Shown: piece after piece, positions 1-20,554 of the stretch
Layout: every line of letters starts with the position of its first letter
Position numbering within the stretch: position 1 is the first letter of the stretch
Source of the DNA: Myxococcales bacterium
GTDB lineage: Bacteria; Myxococcota_A; Polyangia; Polyangiales; Ga0077539
Length of the DNA: 64,000 bases
Direction of reading: 5' to 3'
Assembly: GCA_013298625.1 (NCBI GenBank)
Contig: JAAFIF010000016.1
Span: 11,320 to 75,319 of the forward strand
Made by a program: the position numbers and the translations under genes
The notes under the pieces: generated by a model
Told to the model about the DNA's origin: nothing
The model's database searches: none
Seen by the model: the letters and a program-made list of their open reading frames with translations, nothing else

Positions 1-84
1 CCCGGCGAGCCGTCGGCGCCATCCAAGCCCAAGGCGCCGACGGACCCCAGCGAGCCGTCGGACAACCCGTTCAGCGACGAGTGA
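1..84 (+). CDS. 3' end of an unidentified upstream gene (partial, runs off the left edge)
   Basis: Frame 1 is open from nt 1 to TGA at 82-84 (...PSEPSDNPFSDE*). Only 9 nt separate it from the GTG of the next gene, suggesting one operon. Function cannot be judged from 27 low-complexity residues. Confidence 0.35.
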   Translation, partial: PGEPSAPSKPKAPTDPSEPSDNPFSDE

Positions 85-93
85 ACCAACACC

Positions 94-1467
94 GTGTTGC
101 GCCTGGGATTGCGGCTACCCCCCAACGGCGAAGGCGCGCTCGAAGACTTTCGTGTGCGACCCGAGCACCTCGTCACGCACGCCGTCGTCACAGGAATGAC
201 CGGGAGCGGCAAGACCGGCCTCGTCTTCGTCCTCGTCGAAGAGGCGCTGCGCGCGGGCGTTCCGGTGCTCGTCATCGACGTGAAGGGCGACCTCGCGAAC
301 CTCTTGCTCGCCTTCGAGCCGGGGGACCCGAGCGCGTTCGCTCCGTGGCTCAGCGGCGACGACGTCCAGCAGCAAGCCGAGAAGCTCTGCGCCTCGCGCG
401 ACAAGGGCCTCGCGCGCGCGAACCTCGGGCCCGCTGACGTCCTGAAGTTCGCCGAACGAACGGCGGTTCGCGTCCTCACACCCGGAACGACCAGCGGCGA
501 GCCCGTGCACTTGCTCTCGTCCCTCGAGCGTCGCTCTGCGCTCTGGGACAGCGACGAAGAGTCCGCGCGCGACAGCCTCGCCTCGGCGGTCTCGCTCGTC
601 CTGCGGCTGCTCGGGCGCGACGCCGACCCCGCGCGATCCCGCGAGCACGTCTTGCTCTCGGTCCTCGCCGAGCGCCGCCTGCGCGCAGGGCAGCCCGCGG
701 ACCTGCCGTCGCTGCTCGCGGACCTGGACGTTCCGCCGATCGAGAAGGTCGGCGCGATGCCGATCGACCGCTTCGTGTCCAAGAAGGACCGCAACGCGCT
801 CGCGGCGGCGCTCAACGCGCTGATCGCCTCGCCCAGCTTCGAGTCGTGGCGGCGCGGAGCGGCGCTCGACGTCGCCGAGTGGCTCGCGCCCCGTGAAGCA
901 AAGACCAACGCGGTCGTGCTCAGCGTCGCTCACCTCGACGAAGAAGAGCGCAAGCTCGTGCTCGGCCTGGTGTTCGACGAGCTGCTCGCCTACACGCGCG
1001 GGCTCGCGGGGTCTTCGAAGCTCGAAGCGCTGGTCGTCATCGACGAGGTGTACGGCATGCTCCCGCCGCACCCAGCGAACCCGCCCACCAAGCGGCCGCT
1101 CGTCTCGATGATGAAGCAAGCGCGCGCGTTCGGCGTGGGCGTGGTGCTCGCGACGCAGAACCCTATGGACCTCGACTACCGCGCGCTCAGCAACGCGGGG
1201 CTCTGGTTCGTGGGGCGACTGCAGACCGACGCCGACCGCGACCGCGTGATCGACGGCCTCGCCGACGCCGACGGCGGTCTGGGCGACGCGACGTCGAAGA
1301 GCGCGCTCCACGGCGTGGTCAAGCGCCTGAGCCGACGGTGGTTTCTCGTCCGCAACGTGCACGACGGCAACGCGTGCTCGCTGCTGCAGCCGCGGCAGAC
1401 GATCTGCTGGCTGCGCGGGCCGATGACGCGGGCAGAGCTGCGCGGCGCGGTGCGGGGGCGGACGTAG
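94..1467 (+). CDS. FtsK/HerA-superfamily P-loop NTPase (HerA-like / DUF853-like)
   Basis: 457-aa ORF with GTG start. Walker A 'VVTGMTGSGKTG', Walker B 'ALVVIDEVYG', then 'VVLATQNPMDLD' as in FtsK/HerA/VirB4-type ATPases. Confidence 0.75.
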   Translation: MLRLGLRLPPNGEGALEDFRVRPEHLVTHAVVTGMTGSGKTGLVFVLVEEALRAGVPVLVIDVKGDLANLLLAFEPGDPSAFAPWLSGDDVQQQAEKLCASRDKGLARANLGPADVLKFAERTAVRVLTPGTTSGEPVHLLSSLERRSALWDSDEESARDSLASAVSLVLRLLGRDADPARSREHVLLSVLAERRLRAGQPADLPSLLADLDVPPIEKVGAMPIDRFVSKKDRNALAAALNALIASPSFESWRRGAALDVAEWLAPREAKTNAVVLSVAHLDEEERKLVLGLVFDELLAYTRGLAGSSKLEALVVIDEVYGMLPPHPANPPTKRPLVSMMKQARAFGVGVVLATQNPMDLDYRALSNAGLWFVGRLQTDADRDRVIDGLADADGGLGDATSKSALHGVVKRLSRRWFLVRNVHDGNACSLLQPRQTICWLRGPMTRAELRGAVRGRT

Positions 1468-1505
1468 GCGGGGGAGGGGGCGAAGCGCAACCGCGAGCCT
1501 GCTTG

Positions 1506-2252
1506 CTACGGGGGCTCCGCGCTCGGAGTCGAGTCGCGCGGCCGGACGAGCGCGGCCGGCACCTCGCTCGCACGACGCTCGGCGAGCTCGTAGCCCACGG
1601 GCCGCTGCTCGCTCTCGCATAGCGCAGCGCCTCCCAGTTGCAGCGGACGAACGCGCGGGGAGCCGACGCCCTCGCGGCGCTCGAAGGCTTCGAGGTCCTG
1701 CGCCGCCACCTTCGCGAGCTCTCCGCGAAGCGTCGGGAGCAGCTCGCGAAGGTGCGTGGCGAGCGCGTCCGCGATCTTCTCCTGCCACGCGCGATCCTCT
1801 TCCGTGGGCGCGCTCCACGTCGCGAGGTCGACCAGCGTGACGCCGCCCGCCTTCAACAGCGCGAGCACGAAGGTCGCGCAGGTAAACTCGGATTGTGCGG
1901 GGATCGAGCCGTTCGTGTTGATATCGAGCTTCTCGATGGACGTGCCGTAGCGCGTCGGCTGCGGCCAGCGCTCGATCGCGTCGCACATCGCCACAACGCT
2001 CTCGACTTGGAACGGCAATAGATCGAGGTTGATCGCCGCGAGCTGATCGCGAAACGACGCGTCGACGAAACCCGTTCGATCGCCGAACTGCAGGTCGAAA
2101 TACCACGCGAGGTGCACAAGCCGCGTGGCGCCATCGGACTCGTATCGCAGCCCCGCGTGCCACTGCGTCGGCCGGACCTGCGCCAACACGACCGCGACGC
2201 CCGATCGGTCCCGGTCCGAAGGCAGCTCGACGTCCACAAACGCAGAGCTCAT
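1506..2252 (-). CDS. hypothetical protein, 248 aa (ordered His...Cys pair; a permuted papain/NlpC-like fold is only a guess)
   Basis: Track ORF 1506..2318 trimmed to the ATG at 2252 (MSSAFVDVEL...), which overlaps the TGA of the upstream 714-aa gene (ATGA). Motifs 'QWHAGLRY' and 'EFTCATFVLALL'. No family recognisable by eye. Confidence 0.6.
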   Translation of the reverse strand: MSSAFVDVELPSDRDRSGVAVVLAQVRPTQWHAGLRYESDGATRLVHLAWYFDLQFGDRTGFVDASFRDQLAAINLDLLPFQVESVVAMCDAIERWPQPTRYGTSIEKLDINTNGSIPAQSEFTCATFVLALLKAGGVTLVDLATWSAPTEEDRAWQEKIADALATHLRELLPTLRGELAKVAAQDLEAFERREGVGSPRVRPLQLGGAALCESEQRPVGYELAERRASEVPAALVRPRDSTPSAEPP

Positions 2253-4393
2253 CGCTGCGCCGCCATCACCGCCTGACGTGCCTTGCTCTCGGAGAGCCCG
2301 TCGCGCTCGCGCAGCCATCGCTCGACGCGTGCGGCGAACGCGTCGCGCGCAGCGAACGCGCTGGCGCTCTCGCGCGTCATCGAGAGCAGCAGCGTCGCCG
2401 CGGCGCGCGGAAGCGCGTCGGGGTCGTCGAGCGCGACGAACAGCGCGTCGATCGTCGGCGCATCACCGCTCAACAGCAGCGCTCGTAGCCAGTCCAGCCA
2501 CTCGGCCAGCGCCCTTTGGGTCGCGCCCGACGGCTCCCGCGCGCGCAGCTGCGCCAGCCGCGCGATCAACGCGCGGGCTCGCTCGGACCGATCGTTGGCA
2601 GCGATCGAGGCCCACCAGGCGTTGCGCTCCGCTGCCTCCTCGGGTGTGAGCCACGGCCACTCGAACGCGGTCGGAGTGGCGGACGCGCGCGCGCGCTGCG
2701 CGCGGATGAAGCGCTCGATCGCTTGCATCGGAGCGTCGCCGACGGCCGCGGGCAGCTCGCCAACGGTGAACGACCAGGACCACGGCTTGCTCTGCCAGCA
2801 CAGGGTCGCCCGCGCTGGCGCGTCCAGCTGCAGCGCTGGCTGCTCGCGCACGGCGAGGGACGAGACCATCCAGCCCGCGGCGAGCTTCGCGCACATGGCG
2901 TTGAAGTCCTCCCAGGCGCGCTCGCTGTCGGGCCGGTAGTCGCCGAGCAGCTCAATCGCGTCCATCGGCCTCTGCAGATCCACCAGTCGCCGCGCGGTGC
3001 GCGCGTACAACCTCGCGCCGCGATCATCGTGCGGCGGAACGACCTCGGCCGCCCGCCGCATCGCGCTCCGCGCCGCGTCCCGCTCGTCCGCGAGGACGCT
3101 CGCGCGGATGGCGCGCGACCAGAACAGCGCGTTGTCGGGCCAGCCCTCGGTGGCCTCGCGATAGCCCGCGGCGGTCTGCGCGACGGACTCGAGCTCGGGC
3201 CGCGCGTGGGCGCGGTTGAAGTGCAGGTAGTGTAGGGCGTACGCGCGCAGCCGTCCGTCCAGAGCCTCGCGGTCGAGCAGCCGCTGGTAGAGCGTCGCGG
3301 CTTGCTCGAACTGCCTGCTCTCGGACAGGGCGCGCGCGTGCTCGACCAGCAGCTCGACGCCGTACATTGAGCGCGACCATGCCTGGTCGGCGTCGCCGCT
3401 CGCGAGCAAGTGACGAAAGAGCTGATGGGTCTCGGTCGGCGAGGGCGCGCGGTCTTCGCGCGCGATCATCGAGGCGGCGAGCTGCCGGTGCAGCTCGCGG
3501 ACGCGCGTGGCGGGAGCGGCGCGGTCGTACCATTCGACCCAGCCATCGTCGAGCGCGAGCGCTCCTGCGCGCTCGCTCCACAGGCCGAGCGAGAGCCCTC
3601 GCTCGATGCCCTCCGACGAGACGTCGGGCCAGCGCTCGACGAGGGACCGCGCGATCGGACGGCCGTGCACGGCGAGCCAGCGAAGCACGGTGCGAACGGA
3701 CTCTGCGACGAGGTCCCAGATGCGCTCGCGCAGCGCTGTCGCCTCGATCGGCTCGACCGTGCGCGCGCCGAGCGCCTGCAGCGCGAGCGCGAGCCGGTAG
3801 GTTGCGCTGTCGCCCACGTCCTCCCAACTCACGCTGGCCGCGCGCGGCGCGCCGTTCATCAAGCGAACGCCCGGCGCGCTCGCCGGTCGCAGCGGGACAG
3901 CCCTTCGCTCGCGCCGCTCGACCACCGGCGCGCGGCCCGTCACGACCACGGCGCGGTCGAGGCAGAAGCGCCACAGCCGCTGCGCGCGCTCGCCGAGGGC
4001 GTCACCGAGCGAATCCGCTCTGCGCGGCGCCAGTCGATCGAGGTGTTCGACCGCGAGCCAGCGCCCTTCGAGCGCGGCTTCGAGCGTCGCGAGCCACGCT
4101 TCGTAGCGGGACGCTGACGCGAGCGCGTCCCGCAGTTGCTCGCCCTGCGCTGCGCCCGCGTCGGGGTAGAGCGCGTCGAGCAGCGCGAGCGACGCCTCGG
4201 GAACCTGGTCGAGCGCCGCGGGGATGCGCAGCACGACGACGGGACACGGCGCGGCCGCGACGATCGCGGGCACGAGCCGCTCTGCGTCGATCGTCGGGGA
4301 CGGCCGCACGATCGTGAGCGCGCCGCCGCGGGCCTGCTCGATCACCCCGGCCGCTTGCTCGACGAGTTCTGGCGAGTTCTCGATGCGCAGCAC
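2249..4393 (-). CDS. large hypothetical protein, 714 aa: N-terminal alpha/beta region without a P-loop plus helical/TPR-like repeats
   Basis: Uninterrupted 714-aa ORF about 100 nt downstream of hsdS on the same strand. It has no GxxxxGK[ST] and only 3 Lys in 714 aa. Strand-like 'CPVVVLRIP' and 'RWLAVEHLDRL'. The central region 'RQFEQAATLYQRLLD...RLRAYALHYLHFNRA...ALFWSRAIRASV' looks TPR-like. Confidence 0.7.
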   Translation of the reverse strand: MLRIENSPELVEQAAGVIEQARGGALTIVRPSPTIDAERLVPAIVAAAPCPVVVLRIPAALDQVPEASLALLDALYPDAGAAQGEQLRDALASASRYEAWLATLEAALEGRWLAVEHLDRLAPRRADSLGDALGERAQRLWRFCLDRAVVVTGRAPVVERRERRAVPLRPASAPGVRLMNGAPRAASVSWEDVGDSATYRLALALQALGARTVEPIEATALRERIWDLVAESVRTVLRWLAVHGRPIARSLVERWPDVSSEGIERGLSLGLWSERAGALALDDGWVEWYDRAAPATRVRELHRQLAASMIAREDRAPSPTETHQLFRHLLASGDADQAWSRSMYGVELLVEHARALSESRQFEQAATLYQRLLDREALDGRLRAYALHYLHFNRAHARPELESVAQTAAGYREATEGWPDNALFWSRAIRASVLADERDAARSAMRRAAEVVPPHDDRGARLYARTARRLVDLQRPMDAIELLGDYRPDSERAWEDFNAMCAKLAAGWMVSSLAVREQPALQLDAPARATLCWQSKPWSWSFTVGELPAAVGDAPMQAIERFIRAQRARASATPTAFEWPWLTPEEAAERNAWWASIAANDRSERARALIARLAQLRAREPSGATQRALAEWLDWLRALLLSGDAPTIDALFVALDDPDALPRAAATLLLSMTRESASAFAARDAFAARVERWLRERDGLSESKARQAVMAAQR

Positions 4394-4493
4394 GGGGCGA
4401 ATCTAGCCCTGCGGATACGCGCTCAGCAAGCCGCGCGGGCGAGGGGGCGCTACCCTGCGTTGGCGCGCGCACGAGCGCGGTGTCGCCGATCGC

Positions 4494-6038
4494 CTACCGC
4501 TTTCGATGCGAGGGCTTCGCGTACGCCGATTGGACCGCGTGCGTCGCCGTCGCGGCGCGACCCGCGCGCGCAGCGGCAAGGGAGTCGGGGACGGGCTTCG
4601 GGCGGCGTGCAGCAGTCGGCGGCGGGGCGACGCGCTCGGGCTCCTCTGTGGGCGCGCTGGGGGCGCTCTCTCCTCGGGGCTTGCGCGGCTTCTTCGCGGG
4701 CGCGTCGGCCTTCGCGCGCTCGGCGCGGACGCGGTCGAGCATCACCGACGCCGGCTCGTCCGCCGGGTCCTGCTCCACGAGCTCACCGCGAAACGCCTTC
4801 GCGAGCAGAGAGCGTTCGAGCGTGTCGAGCTGCGCGCGCGCGGACTCGGCGGCGGCGAGCATCGAGCACGCCCGGGCGAACGCGGCGTCGATCCGCGCGA
4901 CGATCGCGCGTTGTTCGTCGAGCGGGGGAAGGGGGATCTGGAGATCGCGCAGCTGTCGCAAGCTCAGTGACGCCTTTGTCATCCCGTACTCGATCTCGCG
5001 GATGGTCTTTTGAATCCCCGCGGGATCGAGAAGACACCATGCCAAATAGTCAGAGTCGACTCGATGTGTAGGGCGGCACAGCGCAACGTGTTGATTCACA
5101 TAGGCCTCTCCCAGGGAAGAGCGAACCACAGCTGTCTTTCCAACATCTGCTGTGATCGTGATGAGCACATCGCCTGGCTTCAAGCCGGTACGCGTACCTT
5201 CTGCGTCGCGCGGAGGGTCGACAAACGCGATCGAAGACAGATCGAGCTCGACTTGATTGCGCCCAAAATTTCCAACTCGAACGAAAGTCGCGCCACTCGT
5301 TGCATAGTGCTCCGACCAACCGCGAGATCCGCTTGTCACCGCCGAGCAGATCTCCCCCAGCGGCGAAGCTGGTGCCGTGACGCAGGCAAACGCCACCCCC
5401 AACACGCTCTTCTTGTACCGCTCCACCATCGCCGGCACCGCATCGAGCGCCTCCCGCGCCCGACGGATGCGCCCGAGCAGCGCCTCCAGCTTCGCGACGA
5501 TCCTCCGCTGCTCCGCGAGAGGGGGCAGAGGCACACGGAGTTCGCCGAAGCGTCCTGCTCCGAGATGCGCGATATTGGTGGTGATCTTCGCGATCGCTCG
5601 AAACTGCCCCGAGTGCATCATCCATCGAAAGAGCTGGAGCGCCCACGACTGCGATACGAACGACGCTCCTCGAAACCGCACCAACGAGTTGGTGAAGCAT
5701 GCTCCAGGCAGTTCTCCTCGATACATGGCGGGGCGGCCCACGAGCTCGAGGCTCTGTCCCTCGTTGAGCAGCACATCACCGTGCTCGAGCTTGAACGTCT
5801 CGAACTCCGCTGGCGTGAAGTTCATCTCCATGACATCGCCGATGTCGATGCGATCCTCGAAGACGTTGGCGACGCGCAGATACGGACGCATGTGCGTGCC
5901 GCGATGGTTGTCTGGCGATCGCTGACGGCCAAGTTGCACGCGGCCGATCTCCGCCACCGTCGCCCAACACCACCCCGTCGGCAGCGGCTCCCCTTCGCCC
6001 ACAATCCCCGCGGCCTCGCTGTTCACGCGCTTGCCCAT
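4494..6038 (-). CDS. hsdS: type I restriction-modification specificity subunit HsdS
   Basis: Track ORF 4494..6995 trimmed to the ATG at 6038 (MGKRVNSEAAG...), which overlaps the hsdM stop by 1 nt (TGATG). Two target-recognition halves each end in the conserved HsdS helix: 'LPPLAEQRRIVAKLEALL' and 'LPPLDEQRAIVARIDAAF'. It carries an unusually long Pro/Ala/Lys-rich C-terminal tail. Confidence 0.9.
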   Translation of the reverse strand: MGKRVNSEAAGIVGEGEPLPTGWCWATVAEIGRVQLGRQRSPDNHRGTHMRPYLRVANVFEDRIDIGDVMEMNFTPAEFETFKLEHGDVLLNEGQSLELVGRPAMYRGELPGACFTNSLVRFRGASFVSQSWALQLFRWMMHSGQFRAIAKITTNIAHLGAGRFGELRVPLPPLAEQRRIVAKLEALLGRIRRAREALDAVPAMVERYKKSVLGVAFACVTAPASPLGEICSAVTSGSRGWSEHYATSGATFVRVGNFGRNQVELDLSSIAFVDPPRDAEGTRTGLKPGDVLITITADVGKTAVVRSSLGEAYVNQHVALCRPTHRVDSDYLAWCLLDPAGIQKTIREIEYGMTKASLSLRQLRDLQIPLPPLDEQRAIVARIDAAFARACSMLAAAESARAQLDTLERSLLAKAFRGELVEQDPADEPASVMLDRVRAERAKADAPAKKPRKPRGESAPSAPTEEPERVAPPPTAARRPKPVPDSLAAARAGRAATATHAVQSAYAKPSHRKR

Positions 6039-7456
6039 CACCCCATCTCCTCGACGAGCGCGCGCACTTCGCTCAGCGCGACGCCCAATTGCTCTTCGAT
6101 CGCCCGGGCGATCACGATGGGCTCGTCGAGGACGTCCCCGTGGCCGCTGCCCTCTTCGCGCAGCCACGAGAGGTCCAGGTTGTCTCCGCGCGCTTTGATC
6201 TCGTCCCGCGTAAACGCGCGCCATCGGCCCTTCTCGCCCTGGTCCGTGCGCTTGCCCGATCCGTCGCGCTTGTCGCCGAACGCGGCCTCGAACTCCGCGA
6301 AGTGCGCGCGCGTGAGCGGGGTGCGCTTGCCGAAGCTCGGCATGTTGGTGCGCAGGTCGTAGACCCAGCACTTCTTCGTCGCGCCCCTGTCGCTCTTGGC
6401 GCGCGTGAAGAACAGCACGTTGGTCTTCACGCCCTGCGCGTAGAAGATGCCCGTGGGCAGCCGCAGGATCGTGTGCAAATCGCACTTGTCCATCAGGTCC
6501 GCGCGCACCTGCGCGCCCACCCCGTCCTCGAACAGCACGTTGTCCGGAACGACCACCCCCGCGCGCCCGCCCCCCTTCAGCGCCTGCACGATGCGCTGCA
6601 CGAAGAGCAATTGCTTGTTCGACGTGCTGTAGGTGAAGCCCGAGGCGTCCAGCACGTCCCCGCCCTTCTTCGTGCCGAACGGCGGGTTCGAGAGCACGAC
6701 GTCGTAGGTGTTCTTGAAGGCGAACTCGCTGGTGAGGGCGTCGCCGACGGTCATCGCTCCGTCGATGCCGTGGAGCATGAGGTTCATGAGGGCGAGCCGC
6801 GCGGTGTCTGGGACCAGCTCGACGCCGTTGAGCGCCTCGGTGACCTGAAACGTCTGCTGCGCCGGCTTGAGATCGAACAGGTCGTTGGTCTTTCCTCGCA
6901 CGTACGCGTCCGCGCGAATCAAGAACCCTCCCGTGCCCGCGGCCGGGTCCAGCACGCGCTCGCCTGCCTGCGGCTGGATCAGCTCGACCATGCAATCGAC
7001 CAGCGGGCGCGGCGTGAAGTATTGCCCCGCGCCGGACTTCACCTCGCCCGCGTTCTTCTGCAGCAAGCCCTCGTACATCTCGCCGAGCTGCTCTTTGTCC
7101 TGCGAGAACCAGTCGAGCCCGTCGATGCTCTCGACCAGCTTCGACAGGTTGCGCGGCTGCCGCATGGAAGTCTGCGCGTCCTGGTAGATCGCGCGCACCA
7201 TCGCGTCCTTCGACTTGCTCAGCGAGAGCAGCATGCCCTTGTACGCGTCGAGCCTCGCCTCGCCGACGGTGCTCTTCAGCTCGCTCCAGTGCGCGTCCTT
7301 CGGCAGCTTCTGCTCGAGCTTCTTCTCCGCCGCCATCTTCAAGAACAGCAGGTACGTCAGCTCGGTCACGTACTGCTGATAGGTGATCCCGTCGTCGCGG
7401 AGGATGTCGCAGAAGCCCCAGAGCTTCGCGACGATGTCACTGGTCGTCTCGGCCAT
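6038..7456 (-). CDS. hsdM: type I restriction-modification N6-adenine DNA methyltransferase HsdM
   Basis: Trimmed to the ATG at 7456 (MAETTSDIVAKLWGFCDILRDDG..., an HsdM N-terminal domain). AdoMet motif 'VLDPAAGTGGFL' and catalytic motif IV 'NPPFG'. Confidence 0.93.
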   Translation of the reverse strand: MAETTSDIVAKLWGFCDILRDDGITYQQYVTELTYLLFLKMAAEKKLEQKLPKDAHWSELKSTVGEARLDAYKGMLLSLSKSKDAMVRAIYQDAQTSMRQPRNLSKLVESIDGLDWFSQDKEQLGEMYEGLLQKNAGEVKSGAGQYFTPRPLVDCMVELIQPQAGERVLDPAAGTGGFLIRADAYVRGKTNDLFDLKPAQQTFQVTEALNGVELVPDTARLALMNLMLHGIDGAMTVGDALTSEFAFKNTYDVVLSNPPFGTKKGGDVLDASGFTYSTSNKQLLFVQRIVQALKGGGRAGVVVPDNVLFEDGVGAQVRADLMDKCDLHTILRLPTGIFYAQGVKTNVLFFTRAKSDRGATKKCWVYDLRTNMPSFGKRTPLTRAHFAEFEAAFGDKRDGSGKRTDQGEKGRWRAFTRDEIKARGDNLDLSWLREEGSGHGDVLDEPIVIARAIEEQLGVALSEVRALVEEMG

Positions 7457-7735
7457 CGCAGCGCGGGACGATGCCACGGCCCGCCCCGAGCACGGTGGAC
7501 GCGCTGTCAAGAAATTGGACAGCTGAATGCCTGCGCACCCCCCATCGACTTTGCTGCTTGTTCTTCAGGTCCCGAGCGATGCGTCTCGACCGTGCGAGGG
7601 GCGAACAATGTCTGTCGAAAACTGGCGACACGCCATCTGCGTGGGGCAGCTTCGGGCCGTATCCACATCCATAAGCGGTTCGATGTCCGGGTGATGCCGA
7701 CGTCGCGCCGCGCCACCAGAGAGGAACGGACTGTC

Positions 7736-8188
7736 ATGGACCTGCAGACGGAGATTCGAGCGTCGCTCGATCGCGCCAACACAGCGAGCGCGCGCCTTCA
7801 TCGCGCGACCGACGCGCTGAACAAGAAGCTCACCGAGGTCGAGGCCGCGCTCGTCGCGCAGTCGCTCGGCGTCTCGGCGAGCGTCGTCATCGAGAAGGGC
7901 GAGCTGACGCCCTCGTTGGTCGAGCTCTGCTTCACCAAGCGCAACAAGCAGTGGGGCCTGTTCATCGAGATCACGACGGACGTCTTGGCCTTCGAGAGCA
8001 CGCTCGCGCCCATCGTCAACGCGAGCCGCGAGCATCGCCTCGCCGCCGTGCGCGCGCTGCCCGAGCTCATCGCCCAGCTGGCCACCGCGGCCGAAGCGCA
8101 GCTCGCGTCGGTGCAAGCCGCGACCGTCACCGCGTCGAACATCCTCGACGCGCTGCTCGACGCGAACGACGAGGAGATCCCCTTCTGA
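7736..8188 (+). CDS. hypothetical 150-aa protein, predicted helical/coiled-coil
   Basis: This is the real part of track ORF 6089..8188. ATG at 7736 is preceded by GAGGA at 7721-7725. The stop overlaps the next ATG (TGATG at 8186-8190). No nucleotidyltransferase (GS...DxD) motif. Confidence 0.6.
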   Translation: MDLQTEIRASLDRANTASARLHRATDALNKKLTEVEAALVAQSLGVSASVVIEKGELTPSLVELCFTKRNKQWGLFIEITTDVLAFESTLAPIVNASREHRLAAVRALPELIAQLATAAEAQLASVQAATVTASNILDALLDANDEEIPF

Positions 8189-8748
8189 TGCGCTGGCAGG
8201 ACCTGATTCGCGAGGCGAGACGCCGCATCACCGGCCCCCGAGGACAAGCGCAGATCGCCCGGCGTCGCGCGGTCTCCGACGCCTACTACGCGTTGTTTCA
8301 CTGCGTCACCTCCACCGCCTCCGAGCGTTGGATCGGTGACAACCCGCTGGGGCCGCCGCTGGCCGAGCGGCTCGAGCGCTGGTTTCAGCACGGCCAGCTC
8401 AAGAAGGTCGCCCTGTGGGGGCTCGAGCACCCGCAGCCGCGCAACAGCGCGCCGCTCAAGCCCGCGGTGCTCGAGCTGCTCACGGACTCGAGCACCAGGC
8501 CTCCCACGTCGCTCCTCACGCCCGACGCGCGCCTCGCGCTGCAGGCCATCAAGGACCTGCAGGAGGCGCGACATCGCGCGGACTACGACCGCTCTCCGCA
8601 GGTGAACTTCACGCACACCGAGGCAGCCACGCTGATCGAACAAGCGCGGGACGGGTGCGACGCGATTCGACGGATGCGTCGCACCGCGATCGGACGCGTT
8701 CTGCTGGTGCTCATGTTGGTCGGCGACCAGGCCGCGCCCGCGCGCTGA
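8188..8748 (+). CDS. UPF0332/HEPN-like domain protein, 186 aa
   Basis: Starts MRWQDLIREARR at 8188. 'RRRAVSDAYYALFHCVTS' and 'LQEARHRADYD' match the two signature blocks of UPF0332-type HEPN proteins (the YYAxF helix and R-x-x-x-D-Y). Confidence 0.6.
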   Translation: MRWQDLIREARRRITGPRGQAQIARRRAVSDAYYALFHCVTSTASERWIGDNPLGPPLAERLERWFQHGQLKKVALWGLEHPQPRNSAPLKPAVLELLTDSSTRPPTSLLTPDARLALQAIKDLQEARHRADYDRSPQVNFTHTEAATLIEQARDGCDAIRRMRRTAIGRVLLVLMLVGDQAAPAR

Positions 8749-8792
8749 CCGCTCCGCGACGGGCGCGACGATGTGCTATGGTCGGGGACGCC

Positions 8793-9095
8793 ATGACGCT
8801 CGCCGCATCACTCTCGCGAAGCGACGACGACCTCGCGCAGCGCATCGCCGCCGCCGTCGTGAGCCACTTTCACGACCTTCGTCTCACGCGCGTGATCGCG
8901 CGCCTCGACCTCGATTGGTCCGGCGACGAGGCGGTGTACTTTCGCCTCGTCACGGACCGTGCGCCGACGTCGGCGCAGCTCGCGCCGGTCCGCGACTACG
9001 TGCAGCAGCGCGTCCATGCGGAGGGGTTGCAGCGCATTCCGTACGTCTCGGTGGTGCTCGCGTCCGAGCTCGACGAGCACGATCGAGCCCTCTGA
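8793..9095 (+). CDS. small hypothetical protein, about 100 aa
   Basis: This is the tail of track ORF 8415..9095. Candidate ATG starts are at 8778 or 8793. The stop lies 3 nt from the convergent hsdR stop. No recognisable motif. Confidence 0.45.
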   Translation: MTLAASLSRSDDDLAQRIAAAVVSHFHDLRLTRVIARLDLDWSGDEAVYFRLVTDRAPTSAQLAPVRDYVQQRVHAEGLQRIPYVSVVLASELDEHDRAL

Positions 9096-9098
9096 CGC

Positions 9099-12000
9099 TC
9101 AGCCAGCCTGCTGCCAGATGCGCTCGTGCAGCTCGCTGAGCACCTCGGCCAGCCGCCCGTCGAACCGCTTGTCCAAGACCGCGAACCCGCCGTCGCGCGC
9201 GAACTGGCCGCTCTCGAGGGCCTCGCGGTCCACGATCACCTCGAGCTTCACCTGCGCCGCGATCTTCGTGAGCCACTTGCGCTGGTGCTCGGTCCACGGG
9301 CGCGAGGCGAGCAGCGCCTTCAGCGCCCGATCGACGCGCTCTTCGTATGCGATCAGCGCGTCGCCCACCGCCCGCTGTCGCACGAAGCCCACGAGCCGCG
9401 CCGTCACGTCCACGTTGCTCACCGCGCGCGTCGCCGCTTGCAGCGCGCGCTCGTCGAAGCCGCCCCCTTCGAGCGCCGTCGCCAACGCGCGCAGATCCGC
9501 GCGGGTCAGGTCGCGCGGCCGCGTCGCCAGGATGCGCAGCGCGTCGACGCGGTTGCGATTGTCACGCACGAAGGCCTCGAACGCGTGCAGGTAGTCGTCC
9601 GGCGAGCGACCGCCGAAGTCCTGCCAGACCGCGGTGACCGTGTCCTCGCCCTTGTGAATCACCTTGCGACGGTCCCCGCCCGCCCGCGGCGCGTCGAGCC
9701 ACGCGATCAGCTCGGGGCGATCGACGAGCCAGCGCACGAAGTCCTCGCCGCTCGCGTCGTCCAGCGCGGATAGCGTCGCGCGCACCGGCTCTCCCGACAG
9801 CCCCTCGAACTCGTCCGCGAACGTCCGCTCGATCTGCGCGCGCTTGCGCCGCAGCTTGCGCGCGAAGTCCTCGCGCAGCGAGTCGCGGTAGCGCTCGCTC
9901 GTCCCTGGTTCGAGCGCCATGGTGGCGAGGTCCCGAAACGATCGCTTGGGGACGACCGCCGTCGGCCGCATGTCCGTCGCGTCGCCCACGAGCTCGCACT
10001 GCGAGACCGCGTCGAAGATGCGAAAGCACTCCTTGCTGATCTCGGGGCACAGCCGCGTCGCGCGCCCCAGCATTTGCTCGTACAGAATGCGGCTCTTCAC
10101 GCGCCGCAAGAACACCAGGTTGCAGATCGACGGGACGTCTACGCCCGTGGTGAGCAGGTCCACGGTCACCGCGATCGAGGGCATCCGCTCGTTGCGAAAC
10201 CGCCGAATGAGCTGGTCATACTTGTCTGAGCGCCCGGTGATCTTGAGCACGCACTCGTCGTCGACGCCGCCGAGCTGCGCGTCGAGCGCTTCTTTGAGCA
10301 GCCGCACGACCAGATCCGCGTGGCGATCATCCACGCAGAACACCAGGGTCTTGTCGGGCAGCACCGGGTCGATCCGCGTCGCCAACTCGGCGCACACCGC
10401 GCGGTTGAACCCTTCGGTGAGCACAGCGCGGTTGAAGTCGTCGACGTCGAAGCGTAGCTCGTCGGGCGCCTCGGTCGTCGCCGTCGCGTGCGTGACAGGA
10501 TCGTACGTGTCGATCGTCTCGCCGACCTTGAAGGTGATCCCCGCCCGCGACAGCTCGGTCTCGATGCGATACGGCGGCTCTTGCGGAGAGAGAAATCCCT
10601 CGGCGACGGCCTCGGTGTACGAGTAGCGAAACACCGGCGCGCCGAAGATCTCTGCCGTGTGCAGCGCGGGCGTGGCGGTCAGCCCGACCACCACGGCGTC
10701 GAAGCGCTCGATCACCCTGCGGTACTTCGAGACGTATTCGCTGAGGTCTTCGAAGGCGAGCTCGTCTTCGGTCGCCTCGCGATCGAGGGTGTAGCCCCGG
10801 TGGCACTCGTCGACGATCACGAGGTCGTACGCGTCGACCGCGGGCGCGTCGCGGTCGTCGTCCATCACCCGCTTCATGAGGGATTGGATCGTCGCGACGT
10901 GGACGTTGGTCTCTTTCGCGGGCTTTCGTCGGTCGAGCCCGGCGATGTTGTAGACCTCCCCCAAGGTGCGGCCTCCCAACATGCGCGAGGACGCGAAGGC
11001 CTCGGCGGTCTGGTCTCCGAGCGAGCGACGGTCGACGATGAAGAGCGCTCGACGAAAGCGCCGCGCTTCGAGCGCGCGATGGAGCAGGGCGGTGGCCGTG
11101 CGGGTCTTTCCTGTTCCCGTGGCCATCGCGAGGAGCATGCGACGGCGGCCGTCGAGCACCGCGTGCTCGAACGCGAGGATGGCGCTGCGTTGATAGGGCC
11201 GCAGGTCGAGTCGATCGAACGAGGCGTCGCGCAAGAGCGCGTCGGCGCGCGGGACGTCCTCGGACAAGCGCGCTTCGAGCCCCTCGGGCGAGACGAAGCC
11301 TTGCATCGCGCGCGCGTGATTCGTCGCGGCGCGCACGTCCAAGAACCACACTCCGCTCTCTTCTTCGAGCTGCGCGAGGTACGGCCGCCCGTTGCTCGCC
11401 AACAAGTACGGAACGCGGTGCTCTCTCCACGGCGCCCCCTCCACCAGCGCAGCCGCGCCGGGCTGAAAGTCCTTCGCGTAGCGCCGCGCCTGCTCGATCG
11501 CGCCCGAGACGTTGCGGTTGTCGCGCTTGGCCTCGATCACGGCTACCGCGCGGGTCCCGAGAAACAGCGCGTAGTCCGCGGGGCCGCTGGCCGTGGGCCA
11601 TTCAGCGATGGCGCGGTTGGTTCCGCTCTCGGGGCGCGCGCCGTCGGGGTAGCGAAGCAGCGTCGAGTCCGCCTCCCAGCCCGCCGCGCGGAGCTGGCTG
11701 TCGATGTCCCGACGGACGTCTTCTTCGCTTCGGACGAGGCTGCGCGCGGCTTCGTCCGAGCGCGCCAGAAAGGTTGCGATGGCCTCGCGCGGGTCCGTCG
11801 CGCGCGCGCGGGCTTCGTCCGCGAGCCGCAGGGCGTCGGCGAGGCTCGCTTCGAGCAGGCGCTTCTCTTCTTCGAGCCGCTCGCGCAGCCGCGACTCATC
11901 GAGCCGCCTCGCCTCCAGCGCGGTCAGCGACGCTTCGAGCGCGCGCACTTCGTCATCGGGGTCCGGCGGAACGCGAAACGTCGGCGCCACGAACGTCCGA

Positions 12001-12395
12001 TCGAAGCACGTCCGCTCGAACCACACGCACAGCGCCAGCGCGTCGCGCAGCGCCGAGAGCGCGTCGCTCGATTGCCCGTCGTACCGATGAGCGGCGTCGT
12101 TTCCGAGCTTTCGAATGCGATGAAAGATCGCGATCACATCGGGCGCGACCCGGCCGCCTTCGAGTCGATCGAGCACGTCGGCGAGGTTCTTGAGCAGCGC
12201 CGGGTTGATCCCGAGCCGCGCGGCGGCGTTGCGGCCCAAGAACTCCGAGGCCGTTCGCAGCCGAAACAGGCACGCCGGCGGGTCCCGTCGATAGTCTCGC
12301 TCAGCGTTCGCCAGCAGCGACTCGAGCTCCGATGATCGCGCGGCCACGAATCCGAAATTGAGAGACTTACCCGGAGCTCCGCTGGTCTTCCCCAT
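9099..12395 (-). CDS. hsdR: type I restriction enzyme R subunit HsdR (EcoEI-like C-terminus) with an N-terminal DUF4145/HEPN-like extension
   Basis: ATG at 12395 (alternative TTG at 12398). N-terminus 'FHRIRKLGNDAAHRY' (DUF4145-type). Nuclease core 'DYALFLGTRAVAVIEAKRD'. Helicase motifs 'LLAMATGTGKTRTA', 'VIVDECHRG', 'GLTATPA', 'QMLGRATR'. C-terminal 'DDYLHAFEAFVRDNRNRVDALRILATRPRDLTRADL' resembles the EcoEI R C-terminal domain. Confidence 0.92.
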   Translation of the reverse strand: MGKTSGAPGKSLNFGFVAARSSELESLLANAERDYRRDPPACLFRLRTASEFLGRNAAARLGINPALLKNLADVLDRLEGGRVAPDVIAIFHRIRKLGNDAAHRYDGQSSDALSALRDALALCVWFERTCFDRTFVAPTFRVPPDPDDEVRALEASLTALEARRLDESRLRERLEEEKRLLEASLADALRLADEARARATDPREAIATFLARSDEAARSLVRSEEDVRRDIDSQLRAAGWEADSTLLRYPDGARPESGTNRAIAEWPTASGPADYALFLGTRAVAVIEAKRDNRNVSGAIEQARRYAKDFQPGAAALVEGAPWREHRVPYLLASNGRPYLAQLEEESGVWFLDVRAATNHARAMQGFVSPEGLEARLSEDVPRADALLRDASFDRLDLRPYQRSAILAFEHAVLDGRRRMLLAMATGTGKTRTATALLHRALEARRFRRALFIVDRRSLGDQTAEAFASSRMLGGRTLGEVYNIAGLDRRKPAKETNVHVATIQSLMKRVMDDDRDAPAVDAYDLVIVDECHRGYTLDREATEDELAFEDLSEYVSKYRRVIERFDAVVVGLTATPALHTAEIFGAPVFRYSYTEAVAEGFLSPQEPPYRIETELSRAGITFKVGETIDTYDPVTHATATTEAPDELRFDVDDFNRAVLTEGFNRAVCAELATRIDPVLPDKTLVFCVDDRHADLVVRLLKEALDAQLGGVDDECVLKITGRSDKYDQLIRRFRNERMPSIAVTVDLLTTGVDVPSICNLVFLRRVKSRILYEQMLGRATRLCPEISKECFRIFDAVSQCELVGDATDMRPTAVVPKRSFRDLATMALEPGTSERYRDSLREDFARKLRRKRAQIERTFADEFEGLSGEPVRATLSALDDASGEDFVRWLVDRPELIAWLDAPRAGGDRRKVIHKGEDTVTAVWQDFGGRSPDDYLHAFEAFVRDNRNRVDALRILATRPRDLTRADLRALATALEGGGFDERALQAATRAVSNVDVTARLVGFVRQRAVGDALIAYEERVDRALKALLASRPWTEHQRKWLTKIAAQVKLEVIVDREALESGQFARDGGFAVLDKRFDGRLAEVLSELHERIWQQAG

Positions 12396-12479
12396 CAAGT
12401 GTTGAATGAAAGGTTAGGGCATTCGACGGCGGTCGGTCGAGCCATTCGCGCGCCGCGCCCTGCGATGGCTCCTCGCCGC

Positions 12480-13883
12480 TCACACGTCTCCCTCGCAGCG
12501 GCACACGAACGGGTCCATGCGCACCGCGCGATTGCACCGGCGTGTTCCGGTCGCGCACGGCGGCCCGAGCGCGCAGCTGTTGCCGCAGAAGCCGCAGTTG
12601 TCTTCGCTCGACAGGTCGGTTTCGCATCCGTTGGCGGGTTCACCGTCGCAGTTTGCGAAGTCCGGTCGGCAGCTCAACCTGCACGCGCCGTCCGTGCACG
12701 TTCCTCCGACCGCGTTGGCCGAGGCGCCGCACGCGCGATTGCACGCTCCGCAGTGCATCGCGCTCGACCTCGTGTCGACCTCGCAGCCGTTGGCCGGATT
12801 GCCGTCGCAGTCCGCGAATCCCGCAGTACAGGTGAGCCGACACGCGCCGCTCACGCACGTCGCGCTCGCGACGCGCTCGCCCATGCACGAACGCCCGCAC
12901 ATCCCGCAGTCCGTGATGGTGTTCAGCTGCGCTTCGCAGCCGTTGCGACCGTTGCCGTCGCAGTTGCCGAAGCCCGCGTTGCACGTAGAGACGGTACAAA
13001 CGCGCGTCACGCAGCTGCCCCCCATCGCGTTGGCGAAGTTGCACGGCATGTTGCAGCCCCCGCAGTGAAGCGTCGACGAGTTGGTGTCGACGCACGCTGC
13101 GCCGCAGCGCTCATTGGGAGCGGTGCAGGCGTCTTGGGCGACGCACGACCAGGTCATCATGTCCCTGTCGAACGCACACACCGGAGTGCCTCCGCTGCAG
13201 ACTGTTCCGCAATCGCCGCAGTTCGTGCCGGTGCCAAGCGACTCGCAGCCGTTGCTGGCGTTGCTGTCACAGTTGTCGTAGCCGCTCGCGCAACGCAACG
13301 AGTCGCACCGACCCGCGGTGCATCCGCGCACTGCGTTAGGCAGCGAGGGGCACACGTTGCCGCAGCGCCCGCAGTGATCGACGTTGTTGGAAGTCTGCAC
13401 GCACTGATCCCCGCAGCGCGTCTGTCCCGCGGGGCAGTCGTTTACGCACATCCCCGCGACGCACACCATTCCTGCAGTGCACGCGTTGCCGCAGCGGCCG
13501 CAGTGCGCAGTGGACTCGCTCGTGCGCGTCTCGCAGCCGTTGCTCGCGTCGCTGTCGCAGTTGCCGAAACCCGCCACGCACGCACCCACGACGCACTGGC
13601 CGTTGCCACACCTCGCCGTCGCGCTCGGCAACGCGCACTCCGTGCCGCAACGACCGCAGTTCACGACGCTCTCGGGCGTCTCGCACCCGTTGCTGCGGTC
13701 TCCGTCGCAGTCGAGCCTTCCGGCCGCGCAGCCGGTGCCGCTGTCCGTGCTCGCATCAGCGCTCGCATCGACGCTGACGCTCCCGTCGCGCTTGATGCCT
13801 CCGTCGAACGTCGGCTTCTCGTACAGCGTGCACGCCGAGAGCGCTGTCAGCAGCGCGCAGGACACCCATCGTGAAGCGCTCAT
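12480..13883 (-). CDS. secreted Cys-rich repeat lipoprotein
   Basis: Trimmed to the ATG at 13883 (MSASRWVSCALLTALSAC, lipobox). Six modules 'C-D-x4-NGCE-x6-9-CGxCGxxC' plus two variant modules. The start overlaps the upstream stop (TGATG). Confidence 0.8.
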   Translation of the reverse strand: MSASRWVSCALLTALSACTLYEKPTFDGGIKRDGSVSVDASADASTDSGTGCAAGRLDCDGDRSNGCETPESVVNCGRCGTECALPSATARCGNGQCVVGACVAGFGNCDSDASNGCETRTSESTAHCGRCGNACTAGMVCVAGMCVNDCPAGQTRCGDQCVQTSNNVDHCGRCGNVCPSLPNAVRGCTAGRCDSLRCASGYDNCDSNASNGCESLGTGTNCGDCGTVCSGGTPVCAFDRDMMTWSCVAQDACTAPNERCGAACVDTNSSTLHCGGCNMPCNFANAMGGSCVTRVCTVSTCNAGFGNCDGNGRNGCEAQLNTITDCGMCGRSCMGERVASATCVSGACRLTCTAGFADCDGNPANGCEVDTRSSAMHCGACNRACGASANAVGGTCTDGACRLSCRPDFANCDGEPANGCETDLSSEDNCGFCGNSCALGPPCATGTRRCNRAVRMDPFVCRCEGDV

Positions 13884-14704
13884 CAGAATGCTCCTCCCAT
13901 CACCAACGTCGTCCCGTTCGCCGAAGGAACCACCGCCACGCTCGTCCGCGTCGCCGCGCGCGGCCGCGTGACCGCGACCGCGACGCCTCCGGCGATGCCG
14001 AGGGCCACGGCCCCTGCGCCCAAGCCAAACATCAACCCGCCGCCGATGCTCGCGGTGTTGTACGTGCCCTCTTCGCTCGGCGGACAGTCGAGCCGACCGC
14101 CGATCGCGACGCAGCCGGACGCGCCCGTGTCGAACAGCCGCGCCGAGTTGACCGCGTACAGCGCCGCTCCCACGCCCGCGCCGACCGCGAGCGCCGCGCT
14201 CGTCCCGACGAGCGCCCACGGCCACGCAGGAGCGCGCTGCGGCGGTTCGATCGGCGGCTGAACGACCCGCGCGCGTCGCTCTCGCTCGATGCGCTCTTGC
14301 TCTGCCCGCTGCGCTTGCTGCGCGGTCTCTGCGGCGAGCTCACGGTCCGCGTCGGCGATCATGCGCTCGCACGTCGGCCGCGTCGGCGTCTCGCGCACGG
14401 CGTCGAGAAAATTGCGCAGCGCGCGCCTCCCCTCGGCCCAGTGCCGCAGCTGAATGTGCATCCGCCCGATGTTGAAGAGCACCACGGGGTCGTGCCCCTC
14501 GGTGTACGCCTGCTGGTAGAGCGTGAGGGCCGTCGCGTAGTCCGTCGCTTCTTGCGCGGCGTCCGCGCGGCGAAGCAGCGACTCGACGGCGCTCTCTTGC
14601 CGTGTTGGTGTGCGCTGCGCGTGCGCCGTGCGCGCGCTGCAAATCGAGAGCGCCGCGGCGGCTGCGACGACGAGCGATCGGTGGGTGCGGGGTGTGCGAT
14701 CCAT
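13883..14704 (-). CDS. secreted/membrane protein with a TPR-like segment and a Gly/Ala-rich C-terminal TM region
   Basis: Trimmed to the ATG at 14704 (MDRTPRTHRSLVVAAAAALSICSARTAHA, signal peptide). 'YATALTLYQQAY...VLFNIGRMHIQL' is TPR-like. The hydrophobic stretch is 'WPWALVGTSAALAVGAGVGAALY'. Confidence 0.7.
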   Translation of the reverse strand: MDRTPRTHRSLVVAAAAALSICSARTAHAQRTPTRQESAVESLLRRADAAQEATDYATALTLYQQAYTEGHDPVVLFNIGRMHIQLRHWAEGRRALRNFLDAVRETPTRPTCERMIADADRELAAETAQQAQRAEQERIERERRARVVQPPIEPPQRAPAWPWALVGTSAALAVGAGVGAALYAVNSARLFDTGASGCVAIGGRLDCPPSEEGTYNTASIGGGLMFGLGAGAVALGIAGGVAVAVTRPRAATRTSVAVVPSANGTTLVMGGAF

Positions 14705-14854
14705 GAAGACTGCGTTTCTCTGCGGTTCTGCGCCGTCTCGACCGAGGCCGTCGCGGTGAGTCATCCTGGAGTGTACCGCGATCGCCCGTCGAAATAGGCC
14801 ATTTCTGCGCGATCGCCCCCCTCGGCGACCGAAGCTGAAATGAGCGCGCGCGGT

Positions 14855-20545: not shown

Positions 20546-20554
20546 GGTGTTGGC

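Follow-up and report, generated by a model that had tools for sequence, protein, structure and literature searches.

Genes embedded in methylation-based defence loci, namely type I restriction-modification (R-M) and bacteriophage exclusion (BREX) loci, have been shown or proposed to be defence systems (PMC11411939, 10.1101/2024.01.29.577857, PMC12839542). The TgvAB genes of VPI-2 in Vibrio cholerae are embedded in a type I R-M locus (PMC11411939), further candidates from such loci were put forward under 'guilt-by-embedding' (Payne et al. 2024, 10.1101/2024.01.29.577857), and BREX loci hold backup effectors together with inactive STAND (signal transduction ATPases with numerous domains) domains, among them BrxB, a compact single domain encoded by a core BREX gene (PMC12839542). 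Here, we analyzed a 64,000-nucleotide stretch of DNA from a Myxococcales bacterium (contig JAAFIF010000016.1, positions 11,320 to 75,319; hereafter the window), in which positions 1.5-12.4 kb are probably a composite, strain-variable defence locus built on an intact type I R-M system and equipped with two accessory modules, the gene pair G3-G2 and the three-gene cassette G6-G7-G8. The pair immediately follows hsdS; judging by its sequence, it is a credible candidate for a new anti-phage system, and would form a two-gene abortive-infection or 'backup' system.

The region assessed was window 1-12.4 kb, in which reading frames were chosen by analysis of G+C at codon positions (GC3) together with homology; G+C of the window is ~70%, and the raw list of open reading frames (ORFs) was crowded with spurious frames. 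Ten features resulted, and all genes listed in an earlier note on this DNA were among them. They are given here with two positions taken from the comparison with a close strain (contigs L110 and L111):

1-84, + strand: ORF of which only the 3' end falls inside the window, with a Pro/Ser-rich tail ending in PFSDE and coding-type GC3
94-1467, + strand: G1, 457 aa, DUF853/HerA-like P-loop ATPase (Pfam HerA_C, DUF87, TrwB)
1506-2252, - strand: G2, 248 aa, putative Cys/His hydrolase of an unannotated family (family alignment)
2249-4393, - strand: G3, 714 aa, STAND-like protein with tetratricopeptide repeats (TPR) (AlphaFold2 model, Foldseek, family alignment)
about 4464-4484, no strand: point at which synteny with the close strain breaks, immediately past the hsdS stop codon
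4494-6038, - strand: hsdS, 514 aa, two target-recognition domains (Methylase_S, Specificity_I)
6038-7456, - strand: hsdM, 472 aa, methyltransferase (N6_Mtase, HsdM_N, MTase_I)
7736-8188, + strand: G6, 150 aa (164 aa if the start is 7694), divergent from hsdM
8188-8748, + strand: G7, 186 aa, all-alpha, marginally HEPN (UPF0332)-like (model, profile against PDB)
8304-9042, no strand: hypervariable segment comprising most of G7 and G8 (DNA comparison with the close strain)
8793-9095, + strand: G8, 100 aa, acidic (105 aa if the start is 8778), convergent with the hsdR 3' end
9099-12398, - strand: hsdR, 1099 aa (NF008521, Pfam, PADLOC)

Overlaps of the ATGA type join G3 to G2 and also hsdM to hsdS. 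From hsdS through G6, G+C is 0.64-0.67, somewhat below that of the surroundings (0.69-0.74). As the earlier note had held, none of the products of 1-12.4 kb looked metabolic, with no match to any metabolic family in Pfam and NCBIfam scans. G2, G3, G6, G7, and G8 matched none of the 5027 PADLOC v2 models, the HEC and PDC candidate models included.

Only 10 relatives of G3 were found among 5.8 billion proteins, in a word-indexed search that may miss relatives, and none was found in IMG/VR. The protein matched no PADLOC, Pfam, or NCBIfam model, Avs models included. Its AlphaFold2 model (pLDDT 84.9) displayed a nucleotide-oligomerization-domain (NOD) fold, that is, a P-loop alpha/beta fold, followed by a helical/winged-helix region, the arrangement that marks STAND-type proteins. 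In full, the layout ran from a STAND-like domain through a winged-helix-like region and the TPR repeats to a small beta domain and, at the C-terminus, a helical domain (~residues 604-699) resembling the protein cluster c1 described below. The best Foldseek match was the STAND-TPR protein 6mfv (E 1.6e-7), followed by SAMD9 (2.6e-5), CED-4 (2e-4), Avs4 (1.3e-3), Avs5, and many TPR arrays. The helical repeats, at ~residues 295-506, had multiple TPR structure matches. One G3 homologue had a faint TPR_19 match, the sole curated domain in the family, and two are labelled 'TPR repeat protein' by the Joint Genome Institute (JGI). The alignment revealed no Walker A motif in any of the 10 family members, with GK[ST], the glycines, and the lysine all missing; in G3, RPSPTID occupies residues 30-36, the site of the P-loop between beta-strand 26-29 and helix 37-47. 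At the Walker B position, an acidic residue was retained (hhhh[DE], E116). As modelled, G3 appears to be like a STAND scaffold, yet to fail a defining feature of active STAND nucleoside triphosphatases, and because the Walker A motif is lost, the protein is probably a nucleotide-independent sensor or scaffold.

Among described proteins, G3 is most like 6mfv and the Avs/NLR-like STAND proteins (Avs4, 8dgf; EfAvs5, 9jap), with which it shares the NOD-like alpha/beta domain, the helical/winged-helix region, and the C-terminal TPR array, and has a putative effector encoded alongside. It differs from them at the Walker A positions, in the lack of a match to any PADLOC Avs model, in having its putative effector as a separate, translationally coupled gene, and in its extra C-terminal c1-like domain. 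The 'inactive STAND' proteins BrxB and BrxF of BREX (PMC12839542) resemble G3 in their STAND-type fold, degenerate Walker motifs, and location in methylation-based defence loci. Compared by description, BrxB differs in that G3 is a 714-aa protein with TPR, is found as an insert after hsdS or in the pglX-pglZ interval, and is accompanied by a putative effector gene of its own; the terms 'TPR', 'MBL', and 'lactamase' are absent from that paper (PMC12839542). The R-M-embedded genes, that is, TgvAB, PrrC, and the guilt-by-embedding candidates, are, like G3-G2 and G6-G8, small cassettes between or beside hsd genes, but bear no sequence relationship to G2, G3, or G6-G8.

We examined the genomic contexts of the G3 family. 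All four of the independent loci that could be read were inside methylation-based defence loci, either type I R-M or BREX, so that the earlier note's advice to give the uncharacterized genes priority proved sound for this pair. In the window, G3 follows hsdS; in the more distant contig L001, where HsdR is 77% identical, the order is hsdR, a G8 homologue (29% identical), G3 (52%), and its G2 partner (53%), with no hsdMS, G6, or G7 between hsdR and the pair. In L003-L006, the G3 homologue is located between PglX and PglZ (PglX, G3 homologue, a 350-aa metallo-beta-lactamase (MBL)-fold protein, and PglZ; a BREX type 1 layout), and in L002 after PglW and PglX (PglW, PglX, two SEC-C proteins, G3 homologue, and an MBL-fold protein; a BREX type 2 layout). 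The SEC-C-motif proteins of L002 (8135-9915; 193 and 343 aa; PADLOC PDC-S12, 1e-9), situated between PglX and the G3 homologue, constitute a second embedded passenger at the same BREX type 2-like site. Overlaps of 1-11 nt between G3 and its partner gene were retained in L001, L002, and L003-L006. The alignment of G3 to its BREX-type relatives covered only residues 1-567 or 52-584, and the C-termini differed in a manner that correlated with the type of partner (G2-type versus MBL-fold). The MBL-fold partner had weak PADLOC matches to LmuA, RTasMBL, and Avs1a, the last of these being a further likeness to the Avs group. Since BREX-type relatives have a different C-terminus and an MBL-fold partner, the sensor would be the conserved part and the effector the exchangeable one.

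PrrC with EcoprrI and PARIS with Ocr provide precedents for guard-type systems, and the contexts above raise the possibility that G3-G2 guards its own methylation-based system, sensing phage anti-restriction proteins (Ocr-like DNA mimics or Stp-like peptides) or the inhibited R-M/BREX complex and then releasing its effector. Such a role would agree with the confinement of the four readable contexts to type I R-M and BREX loci, with the persistence of the pair beside the L001 HsdR even though hsdMS is not adjacent, and with the backup effectors described inside BREX loci (PMC12839542). However, independent systems that land in R-M/BREX insertion hotspots predict the same embedding, the close strain keeps its R-M system without an adjacent G3, and G3 has no sequence similarity to any Hsd or Brx protein, such that we consider guarding possible but doubtful.

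The partner, G2, belongs to a family of 424 cluster representatives at 50% clustering (full HMMER scan), mostly 215-250 aa in length. It had no Pfam, PDB, or PADLOC match, and matched phrog_11836, a phage family of unknown function, at 1e-7. Residues H32, G34, C125, F128, W146, and P218 were invariant, and H47, Y102, T124, D153, and R200 nearly so; in the 50 family sequences, H32, C125, and F128 were each present in all 50, and H47 in 45. This His...His...Cys pattern, with the Cys in a TCATFV-type segment, is as in permuted NlpC/P60 enzymes and is consistent with G2 being a putative Cys/His hydrolase, which would be the effector that does the damage. A closer assignment as LRAT/PLAAT-like gained no support, the hhalign comparison to PLAAT3 (sequence verified against 4fa0) returning a probability of 1.5%, and stays a hypothesis at the level of the motif. 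Pfam LRAT and NLPC_P60 matched none of the 50 family members.

In 80 metagenome loci, the G2 homologue usually stood at the end of a small operon. A gene of cluster c1 (~190-240 aa) directly preceded it in 34 of the 80 loci and a cluster c5 gene in six others. Since both profiles match the same ORFs in viral loci, c5 seems to be a divergent form of c1. The order c1 then G2 homologue was also found on 11 of 16 virus-classified IMG/VR contigs (L113-L128), and by our reading of coordinates 15 of the 16 G2 homologues were no more than about 6 kb from a contig end, a position that fits cargo at a prophage border, or contigs that include some flanking host DNA. The first gene, upstream of c1, varied among loci and in some of them encoded an AriA/AbiL-like ABC ATPase. 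The AAA_21/AAA_15 ABC ATPases that precede G2 homologues at L040:737-2116, L063:3467-4831, and L034:3957-5300 had PADLOC matches to AriA (6e-18), to AbiLi, and to a GajA/PtuA-like N-terminus. By this order of genes, the G2 family would be linked to conflict systems of the OLD/ABC-ATPase type.

The c1 profile itself matched G3 residues 558-699 with 20.2 bits, against a best score of 12.5 bits, and a next best of 5.7, in 1000 shuffles of G3; against the BREX-type G3 relatives, it scored no more than 2.2 bits. Comparison of c1 to the whole-family G3 alignment was uninformative because in eight of the 10 rows the C-terminus is of the other type, and was repeated with the two R-M-type sequences only, for which hhalign gave a probability of 68% and an E-value of 4.8e-5 over 92 columns. 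There is moderate support, from these profile comparisons, for the view that a c1-like adaptor and a G2-like enzyme form a recurrent two-part cassette, in which the adaptor has in the window been fused to the STAND/TPR protein. The last ~95 residues of G3 would then serve as a c1-like adaptor, holding or regulating G2. We infer an anti-phage function for G3-G2, as we do its sensor-to-effector logic and the chemistry of G2.

A bolder version of these relationships makes G3 a pseudo-STAND guard that has dispensed with Walker A and is confined to methylation-based loci (type I R-M and BREX types 1 and 2), its effector being exchangeable by way of a docking domain, while c1-G2 would be a widespread, uncatalogued effector cassette serving several unrelated sensors. 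The TPR array would watch R-M/BREX complexes or their phage inhibitors, the c1-like domain would dock G2, and another domain would dock the MBL nuclease. We give this version a rather small chance of being correct.

The variability of the locus was apparent from contigs L110 and L111, which carry cluster mates of HsdM at ≥90% identity and represent a close strain. Both were 95-98% identical to the window at the DNA level and collinear with it from 17459 down to about 4464, while their tails beyond the hsdS stop codon were identical to each other and had no match within the window. Because L110 and L111 diverge just after this stop codon, G3-G2 is not directly after hsdS in the close strain. 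Relative to L110, protein identities were 99.5% for HsdR, 99.4% for HsdM, and 99.3% for G6, versus 39.9% for G7, 40.7% for G8, and 50.6% for HsdS. The DNA segment 8304-9042 had no match to the close strain, with flanks 96-98% identical. In HsdS (L110 11419-12996), both target-recognition domains had been replaced, and the C-terminal (4464-4928) and central (5388-5534) spacers kept, which by sequence is classic specificity switching through domain exchange. The earlier note had asked whether the region is variable, and had named a block conserved and syntenic in all related genomes, with its unknown genes in housekeeping families, as the finding that would contradict a defence-island-like context. 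In the related contigs we found the synteny break, the replacement of G7/G8 and of the HsdS domains, and the differing layout of L001, rather than such a block. That synteny stops right after hsdS makes the locus variable, and the sequence comparisons support a variable defence locus, not a conserved housekeeping block.

Several observations weigh against the composite reading with G3-G2 as its candidate system. The G3 contexts number only four independent loci, and the word-indexed search may have missed others elsewhere; G3 and G2 have host-typical G+C and GC3; no tRNA gene was present in the 64 kb and there were no flanking repeats; and no integrase or transposase was detected among the products scanned. 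The profile comparison between G2 and PLAAT3, an LRAT-like Cys/His/His enzyme, was negative, and the similarity of c1 to G3 is remote (20 bits), with P0002 alone scoring 11.6 bits, which is shuffle level. Finally, the surroundings of the G2 family are mixed, with defence-like neighbours (AriA/AbiL-like ABC ATPase, methylase with SNF2 helicase, and MoxR) and housekeeping ones (RecQ, haem synthesis, and a peptidase).

Host-like composition and the lack of mobile-element marks are also what would be expected if the clustering had no functional meaning, and G3-G2, G6-G8, and G1 were ordinary genes, specific to the lineage of a gene-rich myxobacterium and near an R-M system by chance, as would be the membership of G1 in a huge, widely conserved family and the lipoprotein gene directly beside hsdR. 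We think this very unlikely, given that G3 relatives recur in BREX and R-M loci of unrelated samples, that synteny breaks and cassettes are exchanged relative to the close strain, and that immune sensors typically have a STAND/TPR architecture like this one.

The second accessory module consists of three + strand genes, G6, G7, and G8, between hsdM and hsdR. The earlier note had called it a HEPN-containing cassette; the cassette is there, but the HEPN character of G7 amounts to a marginal profile match (E 0.0014). G7 has 13 detectable relatives, with invariant blocks RRAVS..YYA.F, R64-x3-H68, and R128-H129-x-A-D-Y133, and matched no curated HEPN model in Pfam, PADLOC, or NCBIfam. Its model was all-alpha (pLDDT 86) and retrieved nothing significant in Foldseek (best E 0.5), HepT having the best TM-score (TMt 0.51 at E 3.6) and Csm6 an E-value of 1.6. 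When the family profile was compared to PDB, HEPN proteins, including the UPF0332 protein AF0298, were matched at E 0.0014, 0.014, and 0.016 with both signature segments aligned, and the second block corresponded to the R-N-R-S-D-Y-D motif of HEPN protein 9xbd. G7 is in these respects akin to the UPF0332/PF05168-type HEPN proteins of HEPN-MNT pairs (2hsb, AF0298; 9xbd; HepT, 7bxo), being all-alpha, with an AxSxAYYAxF helix and the R-[NH]-R-x-D-Y-D motif of solved HEPN proteins (E 0.0014-0.016), but differs in having no Pfam HEPN match, no significant Foldseek match, no MNT-like partner, and no Rx4-6H catalytic (RNase) motif among its invariant residues. A HEPN identity is plausible on this sequence evidence.

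Neither G6 nor G8 had an informative match in family and profile searches. G6 was near-identical between the two close strains, and G7 and G8 were exchanged as a unit. In L011 (G7 80% identical), the order G6-G7-G8 was repeated between opposite-strand genes at the hsdM and hsdR positions. The G8-position gene stayed with the hsdR 3' end in every relative seen (L001, L011, L110, and L111), its homology to G8 being confirmed in L001 and L110 (29-41%), while the L011 and L111 genes matched in size and position. We interpret G6-G7-G8 as an R-M-embedded cassette whose G7/G8 pair is swapped from strain to strain in the manner of toxin-antitoxin or specificity modules, with a role most likely of toxin-antitoxin or abortive-infection type.

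This exchange of G7/G8 alleles, typical of toxin-antitoxin loci, connects to another alternative, whereby both G3-G2 and G7-G8 are addiction (toxin-antitoxin-like) modules that stabilize the R-M locus or hitch-hike with it, without a direct anti-phage role, and the c1-like domain is the antitoxin of G2. The tight pairing of c1 with the G2 homologue in many genomes and near prophage ends is in keeping with it, as are the distant G7 homologues, which occur among housekeeping genes in two-gene cassettes with an unrelated upstream gene encoding 91-104 aa (the 91-aa gene having no similarity to G6). A 714-aa STAND/TPR protein is, however, far larger than an antitoxin needs to be, and many toxin-antitoxin modules are abortive-infection systems, so that the alternative overlaps with the composite defence locus that we favor; as a separate explanation, we regard it as unlikely.

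Both modules accompany a type I R-M system that, from its sequence, is complete, in agreement with the earlier note, with an HsdR of the EcoEI_R_C type. HsdR matched NF008521 with 1263 bits (cut-off 729) over residues 12-1098, that is, at full length, and PADLOC REase_I at 4e-217; its Pfam domains were a DUF4145 N-terminus, the HSDR_N nuclease, ResIII and Helicase_C (together a superfamily 2 helicase), and EcoEI_R_C. HsdM matched Pfam N6_Mtase (3e-70) and HsdM_N as well as PADLOC MTase_I (2.3e-202), with an NPPF motif in its translation, and HsdS had two Methylase_S stretches and matched PADLOC Specificity_I at 4.5e-80. The DUF4145-containing N-terminal extension of HsdR (window 11775-12362, residues 13-208) also matched the PADLOC candidate PDC-M16A at 5e-18, and thus the same N-terminal module occurs in another putative defence protein. 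Window 1-12.4 kb holds one certain defence system, this one, and two uncatalogued candidates.

The ATPase gene G1, in contrast to its description in the earlier note as a candidate immunity module, is by its sequence an intact, ordinary member of DUF853, and would be a neighbour outside the demonstrated modules. Walker A (GMTGSGKTG) and Walker B motifs were present, and the protein is full-length, with weak, partial PADLOC matches only (mad8 at 1.7e-14 and 52 bits; HerA at 40 bits). There were at least 5594 homologues; the closest among the matches listed came from Polyangiales and Myxococcales metagenome-assembled genomes, were named DUF853 or HerA-like, and were 60-73% identical over 94-100% of the query, with lengths of 450-510 aa and matching ends. 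These lengths overturned the notion that G1 is a truncated remnant, which had come from a pattern scan in which 14 of 14 genome loci encoded 785-868 aa, and no separate 'C-terminal half' of G1 was found in the window. In length and domain matches, G1 is like hundreds of DUF853/HerA-like proteins, and nothing sets it apart from the DUF853/YjgR-like HerA-clade ATPases. To our knowledge, no defence role has been established for DUF853.

A distant G1-like subfamily (L014-L029; 36-45% identical), from Chloroflexi, Acidobacteria, Actinobacteria, Planctomycetes, and Verrucomicrobia, carried an extra C-terminal region of ~330-400 aa attached by a low-complexity linker, for which there was no Pfam match. 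Gene neighbours of homologues at this distance, upstream ones included, were not conserved. The ORF at 1-84, its stop 9 nt upstream of G1, had been taken for a truncated operon partner of the ATPase; it is truncated only by the edge of the window, and there was no sign of a functional partnership. In contig L112, three other genes came after a 5'-truncated copy of G1 (84% nucleotide identity). The different neighbours in L112 make the G1 neighbourhood plastic, and nothing ties G1 itself to immunity. The L112 genes (2303-12087; RVT_1 reverse transcriptase of 470 aa, 614-aa protein, and 2170-aa WD40-repeat protein, all on one strand) resemble a defence-associated reverse transcriptase system and occupy the place held by G2/G3 in the window.

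To the right of hsdR, the next gene is no defence gene and encodes a Cys-rich repeat lipoprotein (about 12480-13883, - strand), in which the lipoprotein signal MSASRWVSCALLTALSAC precedes about 6-7 Cys-rich repeats (C..GF.NCDG...NGCE ... HCG.CG..C) that form repeat families of 57 nt and 27 nt at the DNA level. The GC3 analysis, and JGI in L110/L111, had called + strand ORFs at 12418-13971; these were rejected because the - strand frame encodes the lipobox and the Cys-rich repeats. Beyond it, a co-directional block (13883-22141, - strand) encodes proteins of 273, 1896, and 528 aa, and the portion covered by L110 (window up to 17459) was conserved at 94-95% identity. The 528-aa protein is a GHKL ATPase (HATPase_c_3) with an N-terminus resembling Tiamat TmtA and weak PADLOC matches in the ATP-binding motif only, the 1896-aa protein had no Pfam, PADLOC, or PDB match, and the 273-aa protein had a sub-threshold TPR match. 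The GHKL ATPase and the 1896-aa protein may represent a further defence-like module.

From about 22 kb on, the content was largely housekeeping (peptidase, purK, purE, transporters, and phosphoenolpyruvate carboxykinase) along with Ser/Thr kinases. Among these genes, a 679-aa protein (26270-28309, - strand) with Type_ISP_C and a partial N6_Mtase matched only positions 552-1058 of the 1096-residue type IIG model, the N-terminal part being missing, and is either a remnant or an orphan methyltransferase-specificity protein. No Rfam family matched within 1-23 kb, and promoter and terminator scans were at background level.

As a whole, the locus is of a known kind, a variable defence locus anchored on a type I R-M system. 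Its value is in a well-supported new candidate, G3-G2 with the wider c1-G2 cassette, to which the hypervariable R-M-embedded cassette is added. The pair, without a match in Pfam, NCBIfam, or PADLOC v2, combines a STAND/TPR protein lacking Walker A with interchangeable partners, and the G2 family with its c1 partner is a sizeable unannotated family that is present near the ends of prophage-like contigs as well. If functional, G3-G2 would bring a new effector chemistry to the known set, would show how a STAND scaffold can signal without binding nucleotide, and would offer a concrete case in which to ask whether backup systems sense the inhibition of restriction.

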